DNA of 64,000 bases from a phage: the sequence record PX104379.1. The stretch is one strand, 5' to 3'. Positions 23,532 through 31,671 of this stretch are shown piece after piece (the first letter of the stretch is position 1; each line of letters begins with the position of its first letter). The translations under genes were made by a program, and so were the position numbers. The notes beneath the pieces are model-generated. The model did no database searches and was not told the DNA's origin. It saw only the letters and a program-made list of their open reading frames with translations.

Positions 23532-23561
23532 ACTATAACACAACACGAGGGACTTGTAAAC
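23532..23561 (-). promoter_or_regulatory. Early (sigma-70 type) promoter for alt.-3-position gene
   Basis: Minus strand GTTTACA, 17-nt spacer, TGnTATAGT extended -10, then GAGGAA and ATG. Confidence 0.55.
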
Positions 23562-25618
23562 TACATTTTGAACTTTTTAGACATTCCGTTGATGTTAACC
23601 AAAGAAGCCAAGATTTGAGAAACTTCGTTTTCCTCTTCTTTTGATTCTTCTACAAGGAATTGATTAAATCCAGTCATTGGACGAACTTCACCAGTTTCCA
23701 TCAAATGATCGCCATCATATACTGATTCTTCTAATTGCTCAGAAGGAGGAACGATTGTACCTTCGATTAGATACTTGTTATAAGCAGTTTCTTTCATAAA
23801 GTACGTACTTACTTTATTAATCTTCAGTAAAATTCCACGTGGTAGAATAACTTCAGCTTCTGATGGAAATCCTGATAAATGACCTGGAACGATAACTTTG
23901 ATTCGCTCAGCTCCTTTAATTACCATACCCACGCTAGTTTCAGCATCTTCATTAGCATATGTAGAATGACTACCCATATGCATCAAATCTTCTGCATCAA
24001 CAGAACCTTCTCCTTCACCAGAAAATACTGCGCCGGAATCATCTAGAGCCATATAGTTTTTACCATGCTCTCCGAAGATATTTGGTTTAAGTGATGTTGA
24101 TACGAAGTTCTTGAAATAGAACATTTTGTTTTCAATGTTATGACGCAAAGTTTTAAAGGTAACTTCTTGTCCACGATAAAGTGTAGTTCCTGGAGGAAGA
24201 ACTGAACCTTTAGCGAATGCAGAATCCAACGTCTCGATGTGCTTAATGGCACGTTCCATATATTCTTCACGGGTAGAATCTGGTTTACCCAAAAGGAACG
24301 AGTTCATTTCAACATATGAATCTGCGCAATAATCTTCAATTACATCAGATTCAGCTTGAGTTAATCCTTTTGGAGTTACTTCGGTGCTTGCGTATTCATA
24401 TGCCTGGGCAGCAGATTCATTAATCAATTTATAAATGCCATTCATTACAAATTGAATAATAGCTGTCTTTTCATCTGGCGTAGCTTTAGAACCTTTAACC
24501 AAATCATTGATAATTTTCTTAATAACATCAAAGCTATTAGAAATATTAATATCAGCAAGATCGCTTAAAATTTTATCAGTTTTATAATCAAAGAATTCTT
24601 TATTCTTTAAATATTCTTGAGAACCTTGATATGTTATATCGCTCTGCAACTTGATAGATGGATCACGTAAACGTGCATGGGCTAATGCAATATGATTTCG
24701 GAAGTTTTCTAGTTCGTAATCGCTAGATTTAAAACGAGAAGCACTTCTCATACCACCAATAGCTCCTTTGCTGAAGTTTGAACCAATCTGAATAACGCCA
24801 GAGTTCATTGGTCCTTCTGCTTTATACACCGGAACTTTAGATTCAAACTCTTGATATTTCTTAGCAGCGAAGCTATCACCCTGAAGTGAAGCATCGACAG
24901 TAGAATATTGAGCTTGTGCTGCTAATCGACGACTAATTTTAGTTTTCTGAATAACAGCTTGATCAGTGCGCTTATCATTTTCTAAAGCAATAGAAGCAGC
25001 AACAGCGACAGCTTTAGGAACAGCATTACCTGTTTTAACGTCTACATAAACATCACCAACCTTTGATTCAACTTTTGTGAATAACTCAGTTGAAATAGGA
25101 GGTACACCTGGAATGTCTTCTAAATTGGCATTTTTACGGTAAACCATAATATATGCATATTTCTTATCAAAGTCCCAGATTTCCTTTAAAAGAACATATC
25201 GACCTGCTCCTTTAGTACGTACTAAACGGTCAGCAATAACTTGCATTTGACGAGCAGCGCCATTTGTTTTACTCTTTAGTACGCGAAATAAGCATGCATC
25301 AATTTTATACTGTTTCATTGTTTGAAGAGCAGTATCAAAAACAGCATTAATGACGCCAATTGGATTTCCACCCAAGTTTTTAAGCTTAACTAACGATAAT
25401 TTCTCGTTGACACCTATCATTACGATATGCATCATTTTATCGCCTGGCTTAACGTTTTTATTCGTATCACCGCCAGAGGTGTATGTACAAAATCTAAATC
25501 CAGGAAGCACGCTTTCTTCACCGGCTTGAATAGCAAAAATTTGTGGTATTTTATGCTTAGGATTTAAGTTAACAACCGGCGCCGAAGCGCCGTCAAATAA
25601 TTCTGTAATAAGTTCCAT
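23561..25618 (-). CDS. Alt-family ADP-ribosyltransferase paralogue
   Basis: 685 aa; N-terminus MELITELFD shared with Alt; R-S-ExE type motifs YRGQ, NFVSTSL, EAEVILPRG. Confidence 0.85.
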   Translation of the reverse strand: MELITELFDGASAPVVNLNPKHKIPQIFAIQAGEESVLPGFRFCTYTSGGDTNKNVKPGDKMMHIVMIGVNEKLSLVKLKNLGGNPIGVINAVFDTALQTMKQYKIDACLFRVLKSKTNGAARQMQVIADRLVRTKGAGRYVLLKEIWDFDKKYAYIMVYRKNANLEDIPGVPPISTELFTKVESKVGDVYVDVKTGNAVPKAVAVAASIALENDKRTDQAVIQKTKISRRLAAQAQYSTVDASLQGDSFAAKKYQEFESKVPVYKAEGPMNSGVIQIGSNFSKGAIGGMRSASRFKSSDYELENFRNHIALAHARLRDPSIKLQSDITYQGSQEYLKNKEFFDYKTDKILSDLADINISNSFDVIKKIINDLVKGSKATPDEKTAIIQFVMNGIYKLINESAAQAYEYASTEVTPKGLTQAESDVIEDYCADSYVEMNSFLLGKPDSTREEYMERAIKHIETLDSAFAKGSVLPPGTTLYRGQEVTFKTLRHNIENKMFYFKNFVSTSLKPNIFGEHGKNYMALDDSGAVFSGEGEGSVDAEDLMHMGSHSTYANEDAETSVGMVIKGAERIKVIVPGHLSGFPSEAEVILPRGILLKINKVSTYFMKETAYNKYLIEGTIVPPSEQLEESVYDGDHLMETGEVRPMTGFNQFLVEESKEEENEVSQILASLVNINGMSKKFKM

Positions 25619-25621
25619 GAT

Positions 25622-27715
25622 TTATCCTTGAACGAACTTGTAAGGCATGTTTGTAATATCTATGCAAGACGCAATAATTCCAAGAGATGATTCTACTTTC
25701 TGTTTAACGTTTGATGAAACAAATGATGCAAAGTCAACTCTGTCTTCTATTTCAATATCACCTGTCATTGCAACCAATTCACCAGTTTCCATTAAATGGT
25801 CTCCGTCATAGATTACCGATTCGGTGAGTTCTTCGGTGGTCATAACTTCAGCTTGAATGAGTTTTGTATTATTAGACGTGGTTCCGTCATTATTAGAAGC
25901 ATCAGTTATTTTATTAACTTTGACCATCAATCCGCGCGGTAGAATAACTTCAGCTTCTGTTGCTATTCCGAGACTTCCTGGATATACAACATTAACTTTA
26001 TGAGCTCCATCAATTACCCATCCTATTTGAACTTTAACGTATTCAGGATTTTCTTTATACGCTCTTATTTCGTTTGGATTAATAGTTATTCCTTCTTCAT
26101 TTTTATCAACTGTCAATTCATTACGAGTTTCTGGTTCTAAAAGACCAATACCAGCATGTGTAATTCCAAAACGTCCAAAAATGATAGGAGTTAAAGAAGT
26201 AGATACAAAATTTCTGAAATAGAACACTTTATTTTTAACTAGTGCTTCGTATATAGGAGCAGTCATACTTTGAGCACGATAAACTGTGATGCCTTCCGGT
26301 ATGCGGTCACCATTTTCAAAAGCTGAATCTAAGTTATTTATAGCAGATTCAATTTCTTTTTCACTCATTACATCATATCGTTCTGGATTGTAACGACCTA
26401 AAAGAAGATTATTAATGTCAGTATATCCTGAACCACAATATTCTCTAATACCGCGCTTTTGTGATGGAGTATATTTAGAACCATCGCGGGCAATAGTAAT
26501 ATCAATCATTGGACCAGCACCAATTCCAGAAAAACTGTAAATCATTCGTTTGAGGAATTTAGTTTTTGCTGCGTTCCAGGAATTTTTAGTTATTTCTTCC
26601 CAGACTTCATCTGGTTGTCCTTTACGATTTTTATTATGATTAGCAAGCCATTTATCTTTATAATCTTCAAAGAATTGATTTACAGCTGCTGCGTATTTCT
26701 CTAAACATTTTATTGAAGTAGTTGGTTCATTTTTAATTGCATTAAAAATTACTTCTTTAATTTTTTCTGAAACTTCACCGACTTGACTCATTGGAAAGAA
26801 TTTATAATCATAGTGAAGTTCATCTGCCGTTCCTTCAGCAATAATTTTTGCTGCCTTTGTTTTAGAAGCTAATGAATTAATTCCAATTTTCATTTCTTCT
26901 GCTTCGGGAATTAAAGGTGCAGTAGCTGGTTTATTAAAATTAGCTGCTGTAGATTCATACTTTTGGAATAATTCACTTTCAAATCTAGAAGATTCCAATG
27001 ACTGACTCTGTGCAATTGCTCTACGGGAAATTTTAACTTTAACGATTACAGCTTGGTCAGAACGTTTATCGTTTTCTTGCGCAATAGATGCTGCAATTGC
27101 CTCATTTTTAGTTACTTGAGCTCCGGTATCTTTATTAATATAAACATCGCCGACCTTCGATTCAACTTTAGTAAAGAGCTCGGTACTAATTTCAGGAACT
27201 CCTGGAATGTCTTCTAGTGATACATTTTTGCGATGTATAAGAATATATGCATACTTTTTATCGTAATCCCAGAGTTCCTTAAGAAGGACGTATCTGCCAC
27301 CTGAACGACTACGGATAAGTCTATCAGCAATAACTTGAATTTGTCGAGCTTGGCCAGCAGTTTTAGACTTAAGAATACGAAGCATACAAGCATCAATTTT
27401 ATATTGACGCATTGTTTGCATTGCAACAGTAAAAACTGAATTGATATAATTAATTGGGCTTGGACCAAGACCTTTTAATTTAGCAATTGAACCTTTAGCA
27501 GTTAATGTAAAAGGAACAATATGCATCATTTTGTCGCCCATTTTTAAATCGCGATTAGTATCACCTCCAGATGTATAGGTACATAAACGAAAGCCTGGTT
27601 GTTCAATTGCATCATCAACATGAACTGAAAAAATTTGTGGTATTTTCTTCTTTGGATTTAAGTTTGTAATCGGAAGAGTAGTATCTTCGTCAAATAATTC
27701 TGTAATGAGTTCCAT
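25622..27715 (-). CDS. alt: Alt ADP-ribosyltransferase (head-packaged, injected)
   Basis: N-terminus MELITELFDEDTTLPITNL matches T4 Alt as recalled; motifs YRAQ, NFVSTSL, EAEVILPRG; late promoter upstream; exact start codon +/-1 nt uncertain. Confidence 0.9.
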   Translation of the reverse strand: MELITELFDEDTTLPITNLNPKKKIPQIFSVHVDDAIEQPGFRLCTYTSGGDTNRDLKMGDKMMHIVPFTLTAKGSIAKLKGLGPSPINYINSVFTVAMQTMRQYKIDACMLRILKSKTAGQARQIQVIADRLIRSRSGGRYVLLKELWDYDKKYAYILIHRKNVSLEDIPGVPEISTELFTKVESKVGDVYINKDTGAQVTKNEAIAASIAQENDKRSDQAVIVKVKISRRAIAQSQSLESSRFESELFQKYESTAANFNKPATAPLIPEAEEMKIGINSLASKTKAAKIIAEGTADELHYDYKFFPMSQVGEVSEKIKEVIFNAIKNEPTTSIKCLEKYAAAVNQFFEDYKDKWLANHNKNRKGQPDEVWEEITKNSWNAAKTKFLKRMIYSFSGIGAGPMIDITIARDGSKYTPSQKRGIREYCGSGYTDINNLLLGRYNPERYDVMSEKEIESAINNLDSAFENGDRIPEGITVYRAQSMTAPIYEALVKNKVFYFRNFVSTSLTPIIFGRFGITHAGIGLLEPETRNELTVDKNEEGITINPNEIRAYKENPEYVKVQIGWVIDGAHKVNVVYPGSLGIATEAEVILPRGLMVKVNKITDASNNDGTTSNNTKLIQAEVMTTEELTESVIYDGDHLMETGELVAMTGDIEIEDRVDFASFVSSNVKQKVESSLGIIASCIDITNMPYKFVQG

Positions 27716-27737
27716 CATATCCTCTCTAGTGTTTATT

Positions 27738-27768: not shown

Positions 27769-27956
27769 TAATAATCTATTGGTAAGAGAGTACGATATAT
27801 TTCAAACTTTGGACCTTTTTCATAGGCATCAAATGTTTCTGTGAATTTATTATAAGCATATGCATCTATAAATTCAATCATGATTTGTGATACAGAAGTA
27901 GAAACATCTCCACCTTCTTTTTGAGCCACGACAATTGTTTCTAAGTAAGCTTTCAT
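27768..27956 (-). CDS. Hypothetical protein, 62 aa
   Basis: ORF overlapping ligase start, between ligase and alt; no motif. Confidence 0.4.
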   Translation of the reverse strand: MKAYLETIVVAQKEGGDVSTSVSQIMIEFIDAYAYNKFTETFDAYEKGPKFEIYRTLLPIDY

Positions 27957-29416
27957 AAACCAGTTACCTCATGAAAATCGCCAAATACATCTTCGAACGT
28001 ATTAGCTTTAGTTTTATCTTCACGCAAACGAATCGCAATCGGAAGAAATAATTTAACGTAATCAGTGCGGCCATCAGATTTTAACCAACCGTTGCATTCG
28101 CACTCTAGAATTTTTCCAATATAATAATTTTGGTTTTCCATAATGCGAGTACGGTCAAGTTCATGCGATTTTACACCGGCTTTATCTTTTAAGCCTGAAC
28201 CAGCATTTACTTTAATTTTTCCACACTCTGACTCAAGAATAAATCCACCTGCTTTAGTAGGGTCTTTACGGTGAGGATAAATTCCTACAATTTTTAAATC
28301 AACATCAATTACTTCTTTAAATTTATAGAGATTTTTTGAACGAGCATTTTCCCATAATCCATCGATATTTTTGAGAATAATACCTTCAAGACCTTGGTCA
28401 ATATACTTTTTGTAAATTACCTTAGCTTCATCTAGGTTATTTACTACTTGGTTTTCAATTAAAATTACTTTATCATAGCCTGATGTCATTTGTTCTAGTT
28501 TAGAAAAACGTACATCATATTTTAAACGAAATGCTGGAAGACCATATATTTCTACTAATGGAACATAGTCCCAGACCTGAAACTTCATGCATTGTGCTTC
28601 TTTTTCAGAAATGGTTCCCTTTAAAGATTTATTGGCGATGCCATTAGATGCAGTACGTGATTCAGCTACTTCGGCGAATTCTTTAGCTTTACTAATTTCA
28701 GGATAAGCATCAAAAAGAAAATCTAGGCCTTCTGGTTCCTTTTCAACTTGCTCATGGTATACCAATTCGCCATCAATTAACACACCTTCTGGATGAATCT
28801 GGCGGGCTTCAGCAGTCATTTTGATTAACTCTTCCTTAAGAAGATCTAATCCTAGATATTCATTGCCAGCTCGTGATAAAAGACGAACATCATCTAATTC
28901 ATCACCTCTGACTTCGGCAAAGCACCGAGCTCCATCAGCTTTTAATTGGGCAAAGGCTGGAAATTTGATATTCTTATTAATGCCTTTTTCATCATAAGAA
29001 CTTGCCAGCATTTGAGGTTGTTCAGGAATTAAACCTGGCCAAACTTTATTTGCAATAGATACTGATGCACCGCATTCAAGGTCTCGCATCATCACCCGAC
29101 GCAAAACTTCAACATCATCTTTTTTACCATCGGTGATGTATCCAGTTAATTCCTCAATCGCCGCATTTCCAGTCAATTTCCGAGTAGCTAACGTGAATTC
29201 AATGAAGTCAAGCATATCGGTAAGAGTCAACATTCCAAAACTCTGGGTAGCAATACCAGGTTTAGGCCATTTCTTGATATAATACTGTAACCCACGAGAA
29301 TAAGTCAGACGATATACTCGTTTAAGCAATTCATTATCTTTATTCTTTTCAAGAATTGCTTGCTTCTGCTTAGTTGAACCAATAGATGCTATTTCGTTCA
29401 GAATTTTAAGAATCAT
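27953..29416 (-). CDS. 30: ATP-dependent DNA ligase gp30
   Basis: 487 aa; adenylation motif QLKADGARC; N-terminus MILKILNEIASIGSTKQKQAILEKNK matches T4 ligase. Confidence 0.95.
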   Translation of the reverse strand: MILKILNEIASIGSTKQKQAILEKNKDNELLKRVYRLTYSRGLQYYIKKWPKPGIATQSFGMLTLTDMLDFIEFTLATRKLTGNAAIEELTGYITDGKKDDVEVLRRVMMRDLECGASVSIANKVWPGLIPEQPQMLASSYDEKGINKNIKFPAFAQLKADGARCFAEVRGDELDDVRLLSRAGNEYLGLDLLKEELIKMTAEARQIHPEGVLIDGELVYHEQVEKEPEGLDFLFDAYPEISKAKEFAEVAESRTASNGIANKSLKGTISEKEAQCMKFQVWDYVPLVEIYGLPAFRLKYDVRFSKLEQMTSGYDKVILIENQVVNNLDEAKVIYKKYIDQGLEGIILKNIDGLWENARSKNLYKFKEVIDVDLKIVGIYPHRKDPTKAGGFILESECGKIKVNAGSGLKDKAGVKSHELDRTRIMENQNYYIGKILECECNGWLKSDGRTDYVKLFLPIAIRLREDKTKANTFEDVFGDFHEVTGL

Positions 29417-29682
29417 TGTTCATCCTTTAGAGTTTGGTTTACAGCTTTATTATAAATCAATTCATCATTAAGCTCAGTCAAAGACCTGTGGTACGTTGTT
29501 CTAACTTTATTTCCTTGCATCCAGTGCTTGACGTAAATGAAACCTTGCTCTACACATTTTTTAAAAATTCGTTCGTCTTTTTGAGCTCGGAATTCTGGAT
29601 TGCATCTAAAAAATTGATTTACGTGACCGTAATCACGTGTAGTATTACCTTCATTTTCATAAATAGTGTGAACAACAAACAT
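29413..29682 (-). CDS. Hypothetical protein (position of T4 30.1)
   Basis: 89-aa ORF overlapping flanking genes. Confidence 0.5.
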   Translation of the reverse strand: MFVVHTIYENEGNTTRDYGHVNQFFRCNPEFRAQKDERIFKKCVEQGFIYVKHWMQGNKVRTTYHRSLTELNDELIYNKAVNQTLKDEQ

Positions 29683-30536
29683 TAGAATGCTCCTTGGAAA
29701 ATATTATCACCACTACCACTAGTAAGTCTATTAAAATACCCTGCATCGCCAGGCTTAATATAACTCCATGTATGGAATGGATGCATCTGGTGTGAGTGCG
29801 TATAATATGGATGATATGGATTATAAGGATTAAATCCAGGAGTTCTCCAGGTAGTGTTCCAACGAAAAGAATCGTTTTTAATCATCTTCTCGATTACATC
29901 TTTTATAGCTTTTTCACTATCAAAACTTTCTTTATTTTCATTTGGTGGAAAAAGCTTATTCTCTACATCATTCCATGTATAAACTCGCTGGGCGGTTTTT
30001 GGAATACTGTCACGCTCCCCTCGAGCCATCCAATAAACAGGAACATTTAATATTTCACTTGCATGATCGCAGTGGTGAGCGAGATCGTCAATATAACAAA
30101 TTACGTTATATTTCTCTTTTGCCTTTTTGAACAACTCTTCTTTTGAAGAATCATGACCACACATCAATACTTCTGAGAAGGCACCAGGAAAAAGAGCATT
30201 CAAATTAAATTGACGATTCAACAAAGCATCAATAGAATCACCCAATGCTGTAACAGCTACAAAATTATAATCTTCTTTTAATTTGTTAATTACACACAGG
30301 GCATCTTTATATGGAGACAAATAGCGAATAAAATCTGAACGATTATACTTTTCGATTAATTTAACACCGAGTTCTTCATCGCAATTAAAGAGCTTACCAG
30401 GAGAAATAAATTTTTCGTCCTGAATCATTTTTAAAATATGTTCTAATGGAAGATTATATTTTTGGGCAAAATAAGGAAGACCTGATTGCCAGCTTAAACA
30501 TACACCATCAATATCAGTCAAAATAGTAGGCTTCAT
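29682..30536 (-). CDS. HAD-superfamily hydrolase-like protein with aromatic/His-rich C-terminal tail (position of T4 30.2)
   Basis: N-terminal DIDGV motif and downstream YIDDL; C-terminal NPYNPYHPYYTHSHQMHPFHTW segment. Confidence 0.6.
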   Translation of the reverse strand: MKPTILTDIDGVCLSWQSGLPYFAQKYNLPLEHILKMIQDEKFISPGKLFNCDEELGVKLIEKYNRSDFIRYLSPYKDALCVINKLKEDYNFVAVTALGDSIDALLNRQFNLNALFPGAFSEVLMCGHDSSKEELFKKAKEKYNVICYIDDLAHHCDHASEILNVPVYWMARGERDSIPKTAQRVYTWNDVENKLFPPNENKESFDSEKAIKDVIEKMIKNDSFRWNTTWRTPGFNPYNPYHPYYTHSHQMHPFHTWSYIKPGDAGYFNRLTSGSGDNIFQGAF

Positions 30537-30997
30537 AGAGAGTCTCTTAGTAGGTTTAACACATCAATAAATTCAGCTTCGGTTAGTATTGTATCATCTT
30601 TTGTTAGACCACTAGCCATGCTGTGCTTCAAAACTTTTCCTTTTGAGGCTTGTAAGGCATCACGAAACCCCTTGTTTTGAATCGCTGCTTCAAAATATGC
30701 ATTTGTATACAACTCTTTCCACGCTGGAGAGTATCTTGAAAATGGAACTCCCAGCCAGAAGAGGGTCCCACGGTCCTGAGCTCTTGCATAAGACCTTCCA
30801 GCTTGTTGGGCGGCAACCCCGGATAACCCAAATATACGTCTTTGCTGCTCAACATTTTTCACCTTGCATCCTTGGAGGAATCCTTCGAGACCTCCAAATT
30901 GAATACCATCCATGACGAAAGGCCATTGGGCGAAATTACTTAATGCGCATGATGGCCATCTAAAATTGCTTCTAATCTCTAACTCAGACATTTTCAA
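30533..30997 (-). CDS. NADAR/YbiA-like (DUF1768) protein (position of T4 30.3)
   Basis: LSNFAQWPF..DG..F...EGFLQGCK resembles the YbiA/NADAR signature SNF..P...DG....EhyfQ..K. Confidence 0.6.
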   Translation of the reverse strand: MKMSELEIRSNFRWPSCALSNFAQWPFVMDGIQFGGLEGFLQGCKVKNVEQQRRIFGLSGVAAQQAGRSYARAQDRGTLFWLGVPFSRYSPAWKELYTNAYFEAAIQNKGFRDALQASKGKVLKHSMASGLTKDDTILTEAEFIDVLNLLRDSL

Positions 30998-31190
30998 TAC
31001 TTATAATTTCAACATCAGCCCAATGACCATAGCAAGGAAGACGAAATTCAACTGGCCAGTTAGGGTCCTTTTCTAATATAATAGACTTAACTTGTGGTTC
31101 TTCATGTTCATCAGTATATGGATTTTTATCTGTTACTTTATATGTGACCTTAATGTACTGAATTCCAAAAATCTTATTAATTATATTCAT
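30984..31190 (-). CDS. Hypothetical protein, 68 aa
   Basis: ORF in operon context, overlapping neighbours. Confidence 0.5.
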   Translation of the reverse strand: MNIINKIFGIQYIKVTYKVTDKNPYTDEHEEPQVKSIILEKDPNWPVEFRLPCYGHWADVEIISIENV

Positions 31191-31384
31191 ACTAATTCCT
31201 TTAATCCGTAAATAGGAGATAATTCATCACCCATACGAAGGTCTTCATTTCCATCTACCCAGGAAACAATATAAGCCTCTTTTATTTGAATACCACTCCA
31301 TTTAAATGGAGGTAGAACCTTAGAAATTAATCCAGGTATACCAACTCCCTTTAATTCAACAGTTTGACCTAAAAAGAATTTCAT
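31187..31384 (-). CDS. Hypothetical protein, 65 aa
   Basis: ORF in operon context. Confidence 0.5.
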   Translation of the reverse strand: MKFFLGQTVELKGVGIPGLISKVLPPFKWSGIQIKEAYIVSWVDGNEDLRMGDELSPIYGLKELV

Positions 31385-31671
31385 TAGAACCTCATCTGAA
31401 AACCGTGCGATTTAACATTACCGCCGCCAATATCAGAAATGTTAATTTCACTCGCAATTGAAGGGTCAATGTCAATTTCGCGATTGAGTTTAGTGATAGC
31501 TAAAGTATCACGCCCATTTACTGTACGGAATTCTAAAGGACAAACCACATCAACGTAATTTTTAATCGATTCACTGGTAGGTTGCAAATGAGCAGGAAGG
31601 TCTTTAGGCGCCTTTGAGAAAACCACTTCACAAAAATTTTTGCGGGTGTCAAAATAAGTAGTCATAAACAT
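31384..31671 (-). CDS. Hypothetical protein, 95 aa
   Basis: ORF in operon context. Confidence 0.5.
   Translation of the reverse strand: MFMTTYFDTRKNFCEVVFSKAPKDLPAHLQPTSESIKNYVDVVCPLEFRTVNGRDTLAITKLNREIDIDPSIASEINISDIGGGNVKSHGFQMRF

Follow-up and report, generated by a model that had tools for sequence, protein, structure and literature searches.

What is the function of the small minus-strand ORF that lies about 3 kb from two Alt-like ADP-ribosyltransferase genes in phage sequence PX104379.1? A sequence-only reading of the 64,000-nucleotide stretch analysed here (the window) had proposed a NADAR/YbiA-like protein that could either reverse ADP-ribosylation imposed by a host defence or edit what the transferases of the phage itself have modified. 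The gene is almost certainly adfN, the Tequatrovirus orthologue of T4 gene 30.3, which encodes an orphan antitoxin-like NADAR-fold enzyme that defeats DarTG1. Its identity and function were already described in 2024-2025 for a 99%-identical T4 protein and are, therefore, not new.

Identity and start site of the gene

The ORF list gives a minus-strand ORF at 30533..30997, encoding 154 aa if begun at TTG. The ORF first proposed at this position is real, but its 154-aa TTG start is unlikely. Translation probably begins at the ATG at 30991, rather than at the TTG at 30997, to yield a product of 152 aa (MSELEIRS...). Three features favour this ATG: the upstream gene 30.4 ends in a stop codon that overlaps it (ATGTCTGA), the gene then has the 459 nt annotated in T4, and the catalytic residues become E36 and K43, as numbered in the literature.

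The protein matches the Pfam family PF08010 (Phage_30_3, 'Bacteriophage protein GP30.3') from position 1 to 138 of the 138 profile positions (hmmscan, E=4.2e-70, 234 bits, the curated cutoff being 36 bits). The 152-aa product also matches phrog_652 (E=2e-51). Using tblastn, we retrieved it from 1511 phage records, 618 of them with at least 95% identity and one, phage vB-Eco-KMB22, encoding a protein identical to the 152-aa product. Given the PF08010 match and this presence across phage records, the ORF is not due to chance. The region surrounding it (29400..31400) showed up to 98% identity to Tequatrovirus genomes in megablast searches.

The closest characterized relative is AdfN-T4 (T4 gp30.3, NP_049816), a protein of equal length that is identical at 150 of the 152 positions (99%). 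The two differences, L59V and I125M, are both conservative and sit away from E36, K43 and H123, three residues that the two proteins share along with the C-terminal helix. The gene is located between 30.4 and 30.2, as in T4 (NC_000866). The elements recognized within it are listed below, in window coordinates.

30533..30991, minus strand, stop codon included: adfN (T4 gene 30.3), predicted to encode a 152-aa NADAR-fold DNA ADP-ribosylglycohydrolase
30863..30943, minus strand: N-terminal NADAR signature, residues 17-43 (LSNFAQWPFVMDGIQFGGLEGFLQGCK), read in the translation
30884..30886, minus strand: codon GAA, predicted catalytic Glu36, read from the sequence (published T4 mutant E36A)
30863..30865, minus strand: codon AAG, predicted catalytic Lys43, read from the sequence (published T4 mutant K43A)
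30623..30628, minus strand: Lys122-His123, after the last beta-strand, from the family alignment, hhalign and MAFFT
30536..30580, minus strand: C-terminal helix, residues 138-152 (138-151 in the model), intact
30628..30855, minus strand, in a frame other than that of adfN: 30.3', a nested 75-aa ORF matching PF11097 (DUF2883, E=3.2e-40)

The T4 annotation describes 30.3' as an internal translation in a different frame. It has no known role in AdfN function, and the published adfN deletions would remove it as well. Some database proteins (P0015 and P0016) combine matches to PF08010 and PF11097, which suggests natural frameshifts fusing the adfN and 30.3' frames.

adfN is labelled 'hypothetical protein' in most of the GenBank phage records (hundreds), and in some of them it is begun at an internal Met. 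One such case is Escherichia phage ECML-134 (L001 4634..5092), where the gene is annotated as 126 aa. We considered whether this form could be a damaged allele and rejected the idea, as the gene is intact and annotated from the internal Met. The same start call probably accounts for the 126-aa clusters in the database (P0004-P0006).

Gene neighbourhood

Around adfN, the genes follow the order known from T4, with two alt genes, alt.1, 30 (DNA ligase), 30.1 (DUF3045), 30.2, 30.3 and 30.4, followed by 30.5, 30.6, 30.7, 30.8, rIII, 31, 31.1, 31.2 and cd. The neighbours most relevant to its function are the following.

23561..25618, minus strand: first Alt-like ADP-ribosyltransferase gene
25622..27718, minus strand: second, nearer Alt-like ADP-ribosyltransferase gene, 2.8 kb from adfN
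27953..29416, minus strand: DNA ligase (gene 30)
29682..30536, minus strand: gene 30.2, HAD-fold hydrolase, downstream neighbour, its start overlapping the adfN stop
30984..31190, minus strand: gene 30.4 (T4 annotation; phrog_2042), upstream neighbour, its stop overlapping the adfN ATG

The distance to the nearer Alt-like gene agrees with the 3 kb first reported for this locus. Both tandem Alt-like genes are full length; the ligase-side copy is 71% identical to T4 Alt, while the farther one (23561..25618) is only 41% identical to both T4 Alt and the ligase-side copy. In T4, the second alt copy is reduced to the remnants alt.-1 and alt.-2. A 2022 paper (PMC9503650) had already pointed out that the NADAR genes carried by T4-like phages belong to the early genes and lie close to the ADP-ribosyltransferase (ART) genes.

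Overlapping or abutting start and stop codons link 30.6-30.5-30.4-30.3-30.2-30.1-30 in a chain on the minus strand, so that the earlier placement of the gene in one unit with DNA ligase and a HAD-like hydrolase holds. Searches between 27500 and 33500 returned 24 promoter-like sites (21.7 expected) and three terminator-like sites (3.3 expected), no better than in shuffled sequence in either case.

No Pfam or NCBIfam match was obtained for gp30.2, the product of the downstream neighbour. Its label as a HAD-like hydrolase is nevertheless borne out by all four HAD motifs, which are invariant in its family (D8xD10G11, T96, K132 and D150D151), and by its AlphaFold2 model, which matches HAD hydrolases and 5'(3')-deoxyribonucleotidases with Foldseek E-values of ~1e-8, the latter being the closest fold. 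In the model, residues 1-220 are well folded; pLDDT exceeds 90 across residues 1-190 and drops below 50 in residues 241-284. The last ~45 residues are rich in His, Tyr and Pro and are predicted to be disordered. The versions of 30.2 found in RB43 and Ac42 are ~200 aa long and lack the ~85 residues beyond 195-200.

NADAR fold and catalytic residues

The signature motif quoted in the sequence-only reading is indeed present in the translation, at residues 17-43, and its assignment to the NADAR/YbiA-like proteins was upheld, albeit not by the route proposed for checking it. The Pfam search against PF08719 gave no match at E≤10 (hmmscan of the protein), and the protein had no match in the NCBIfam scan. 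A single-sequence phmmer search against PDB did not retrieve any NADAR protein, the only match being that to 3rjz, which is attributable to chance (E=0.47). PF08719 (DUF1768, NADAR), the family of E. coli YbiA, is separate from PF08010 in Pfam. A few members of the gp30.3 family carry both Pfam matches, and some are named YbiA/DUF1768 by JGI, which likewise shows the relationship.

To compare families rather than single sequences, profiles were derived from two alignments, one of 49 gp30.3-family members and another of 39 relatives of ybiA from MG1655. The first profile matched E. coli YbiA (2b3w) in PDB over the N-terminal motif (E=0.004), and hhalign aligned the two profiles over 124 columns with 97.4% probability and E=1.3e-11. 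An AlphaFold2 model computed from the gp30.3-family alignment (mean pLDDT 92.6, pTM 0.88) has the alpha+beta fold of YbiA and matched 2b3w in Foldseek with E=8e-5. For the protein itself, the link to YbiA thus emerges only by profile-profile and structure comparison.

Positions invariant in the 49 gp30.3-family members include S18, N19, F20, E36, G37, F38, Q40 and H123, and K43 is kept in 48 of them. In the hhalign alignment, E36 is paired with E48 of YbiA and K43 with K55. Of the conserved catalytic residues expected from the earlier assignment, E36 and K43 are present, but the acidic third one is absent: neither the last strand nor the residues that follow it supply the acid, which is Glu in the YbiA family and Asp in the DarT1-associated NADARs. 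In the phage family, K, T, R or V occupies the column of the Glu125 that is invariant in the YbiA family. Both hhalign and a joint MAFFT L-INS-i alignment set K122 opposite E125 and the invariant H123 opposite YbiA His126 (conserved in 38 of the 39 YbiA relatives), with a one-residue gap directly before K122-H123 that is placed by sequence only. Phage NADARs have been described as having a His in place of the Glu of the YbiA family (PMC11125620, PMC11825919 and PMC11543638). Our alignments point to a slightly different wording, in which the phage clade would, on sequence evidence, do without the third catalytic acid and keep the neighbouring His.

Function described for T4 AdfN

T4 gp30.3 was renamed AdfN in 2025 by Johannesman et al. 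[quoted passage not shown] According to that work, T4 and T2 devoid of adfN form no plaques on DarTG1 hosts, and RB69 is rescued by ectopic AdfN-T4. The RB69 allele itself is inactive: through a frameshift at nt 411, its product lacks the final 15 residues and is less active. The substitutions E36A and K43A, as well as a C-terminal truncation, lower the rescue by AdfN-T4. The purified protein strips ADP-ribose from DNA in vitro; AdfN-T4 does not counter DarTG2, and its full activity needs T-even infection (all in PMC11825919). A 2024 study showed that the purified T4 protein cleaves guanine-linked, not thymidine-linked, ADP-ribose on DNA in vitro (PMC11125620). DarT1 toxicity in uninfected E. 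coli is not rescued by the T4 protein (PMC11125620 and PMC11825919). The phage gp30.3 proteins form a NADAR clade according to De Souza and Aravind, as cited in PMC11543638 and PMC11125620, and this clade has been reported to be nearest to the DarT1-associated NADARs (PMC11825919).

Reversal of guanine ADP-ribosylation imposed by a host DarT, one of the two roles first suggested for the gene, is thus the published function of a 99%-identical protein. By analogy with the T4 protein, we infer the same enzymatic role and anti-DarTG1 phenotype in the present phage. The RB69-type frameshift is absent from the adfN gene described here, and the C-terminal helix region is complete, since the ORF reaches residue 152 and residues 126-152 are identical to those of T4.

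Other NADAR proteins are known to counter DarT. The DarG1 antitoxins (Geobacter lovleyi 8BAT and the E. coli C7 NADAR; Schuller et al. 2023, PMC11543638) are paired with DarT1, whereas the present gene is an orphan. DarG1 has 219 aa as compared with 152 aa here, with 132 residues aligned, and the present protein lacks the N-terminal extension and has no acidic counterpart of DarG1 Asp171. T4 AdfN also differs from DarG1 in that it fails to relieve DarT1 toxicity when there is no T-even infection. AdfN-Bas32 and AdfN-Bas60, from T5-like and Vequintavirinae phages, are likewise phage-encoded orphan NADARs that counter DarTG1; according to their published description, they belong to other NADAR clades and are active in uninfected cells.

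Proposed mechanism

In the mechanism that we propose, adfN would be among the genes expressed early, as part of the leftward chain in which DNA ligase is also encoded. In a DarTG1-carrying host, the DarT1 toxin would ADP-ribosylate guanine bases of the phage DNA and block its replication. AdfN would then cut the N-glycosidic bond that joins ADP-ribose to guanine, so that the DNA is normal again and the phage can replicate. Two residues of the N-terminal signature, Glu36 and Lys43, would serve in catalysis; full activity would also require the C-terminal helix.

A scheme in which the enzyme is sufficient alone is incomplete because the T4 protein fails to rescue DarT1 toxicity in uninfected E. 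coli; a T-even factor or a feature of the substrate is involved in AdfN activity. Such a potentiator might be encoded in the same coupled chain, for instance by the gene of the HAD-fold phosphatase gp30.2, or the change from Glu to Lys or Thr beside the invariant His might tune the enzyme to glucosyl-hydroxymethylcytosine DNA. We regard this proposal as speculative and unlikely. If true, either version would explain an open point of the published work.

Linkage in distant phages

The arrangement alt-30-30.2-30.3 is kept in Acinetobacter phage Ac42, and its 30-30.2-30.3 part in RB43. In Ac42, genes 30.2 and 30.3 are adjacent, whereas RB43 has 30.2 ~1 kb downstream of 30.3. In KVP40, phiAS4, RSP15, a Desulfovibrio phage and a jumbo-phage-like metagenomic contig, 30.3 is located elsewhere. 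Since the linkage with 30.2, ligase and Alt is not kept in these five, adfN behaves as a stand-alone orphan gene. The idea that proximity to Alt is informative was dropped, as linkage to Alt is kept in Ac42 only and that to 30.2 and ligase in Ac42 and RB43; closeness to Alt reflects T-even synteny, not a conserved module.

No DarT1 toxin gene is found next to adfN in the window, its neighbours being 30.4 and the HAD-like 30.2. Likewise, no DarT gene was seen, by match or annotation, beside the homologues at eight other loci; for the Desulfovibrio phage locus (L016), which is unannotated, the screen used solely the proteins of the 64-kb window. The metagenomic relatives P0043 and P0105 have no DarT alongside, and their contexts resemble those of large phages.

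Both the jumbo-phage-like contig (L004 9115..9879) and Ac42 (L012 1..224) have a NUDIX hydrolase gene no more than a few kb from their gp30.3 homologue; in Ac42, it is annotated as an ADP-ribose pyrophosphatase. This hydrolase could process the ADP-ribose set free by the gp30.3 homologue.

Alternative substrates

Alt-type enzymes modify proteins, at arginine as established for T4. This bears on the second role first suggested for the gene, namely that the enzyme reverses or edits ADP-ribosylation by transferases of the phage itself (Alt, ModA or ModB). The two Alt paralogues 3 kb off and their probable early co-expression with adfN would fit such a role, but NADARs cleave base-linked ADP-ribose, and 30.3 occurs apart from Alt in the same five distant sources in which it lies elsewhere (KVP40, phiAS4, RSP15, the Desulfovibrio phage and the jumbo-phage-like contig). 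The substrate demonstrated for the T4 enzyme is ADP-ribose on guanine in DNA rather than on arginine in proteins. Moreover, the phenotype of adfN loss is specific to DarTG1. Self-editing is, therefore, unsupported, and we consider it extremely unlikely. An even fainter prospect, to which we attach almost no weight, is that of a housekeeping N-glycosidase of the YbiA type acting on riboflavin-pathway intermediates. The protein has its fold and N-terminal motif in common with E. coli YbiA, yet it is only ~20% identical to it and lacks both the invariant Glu125 and the glycine- and tryptophan-rich loop (HTENDAYWGDGG) that follows this residue in YbiA and is missing throughout the phage family. 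The physiological role of YbiA also differs, published work places the phage clade nearest to the NADARs associated with DarT1, and the DarTG1 phenotype has been demonstrated for T4.

A soluble substrate deserves somewhat more attention, though we still judge it very improbable that the main targets are ADP-ribose-derived molecules, such as immune signals or RNA-repair by-products, instead of DNA adducts. Ahead of the experiments, such a role had been put forward for phage NADARs as a whole (PMC9503650); the NUDIX genes near some family members (contig L004 and Ac42) are compatible with it, and inactivity in uninfected cells leaves space for other substrates. Nonetheless, the T4 protein de-ADP-ribosylates DNA in vitro and has a specific DarTG1 phenotype, while no soluble substrate has been demonstrated. 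Removal of ADP-ribose from guanine in phage DNA thus stays by far the best-supported activity for adfN.

Significance

The present window contributes only one further intact adfN allele, and the practical value of its identification lies in the annotation of GenBank phage records. [quoted passage not shown]
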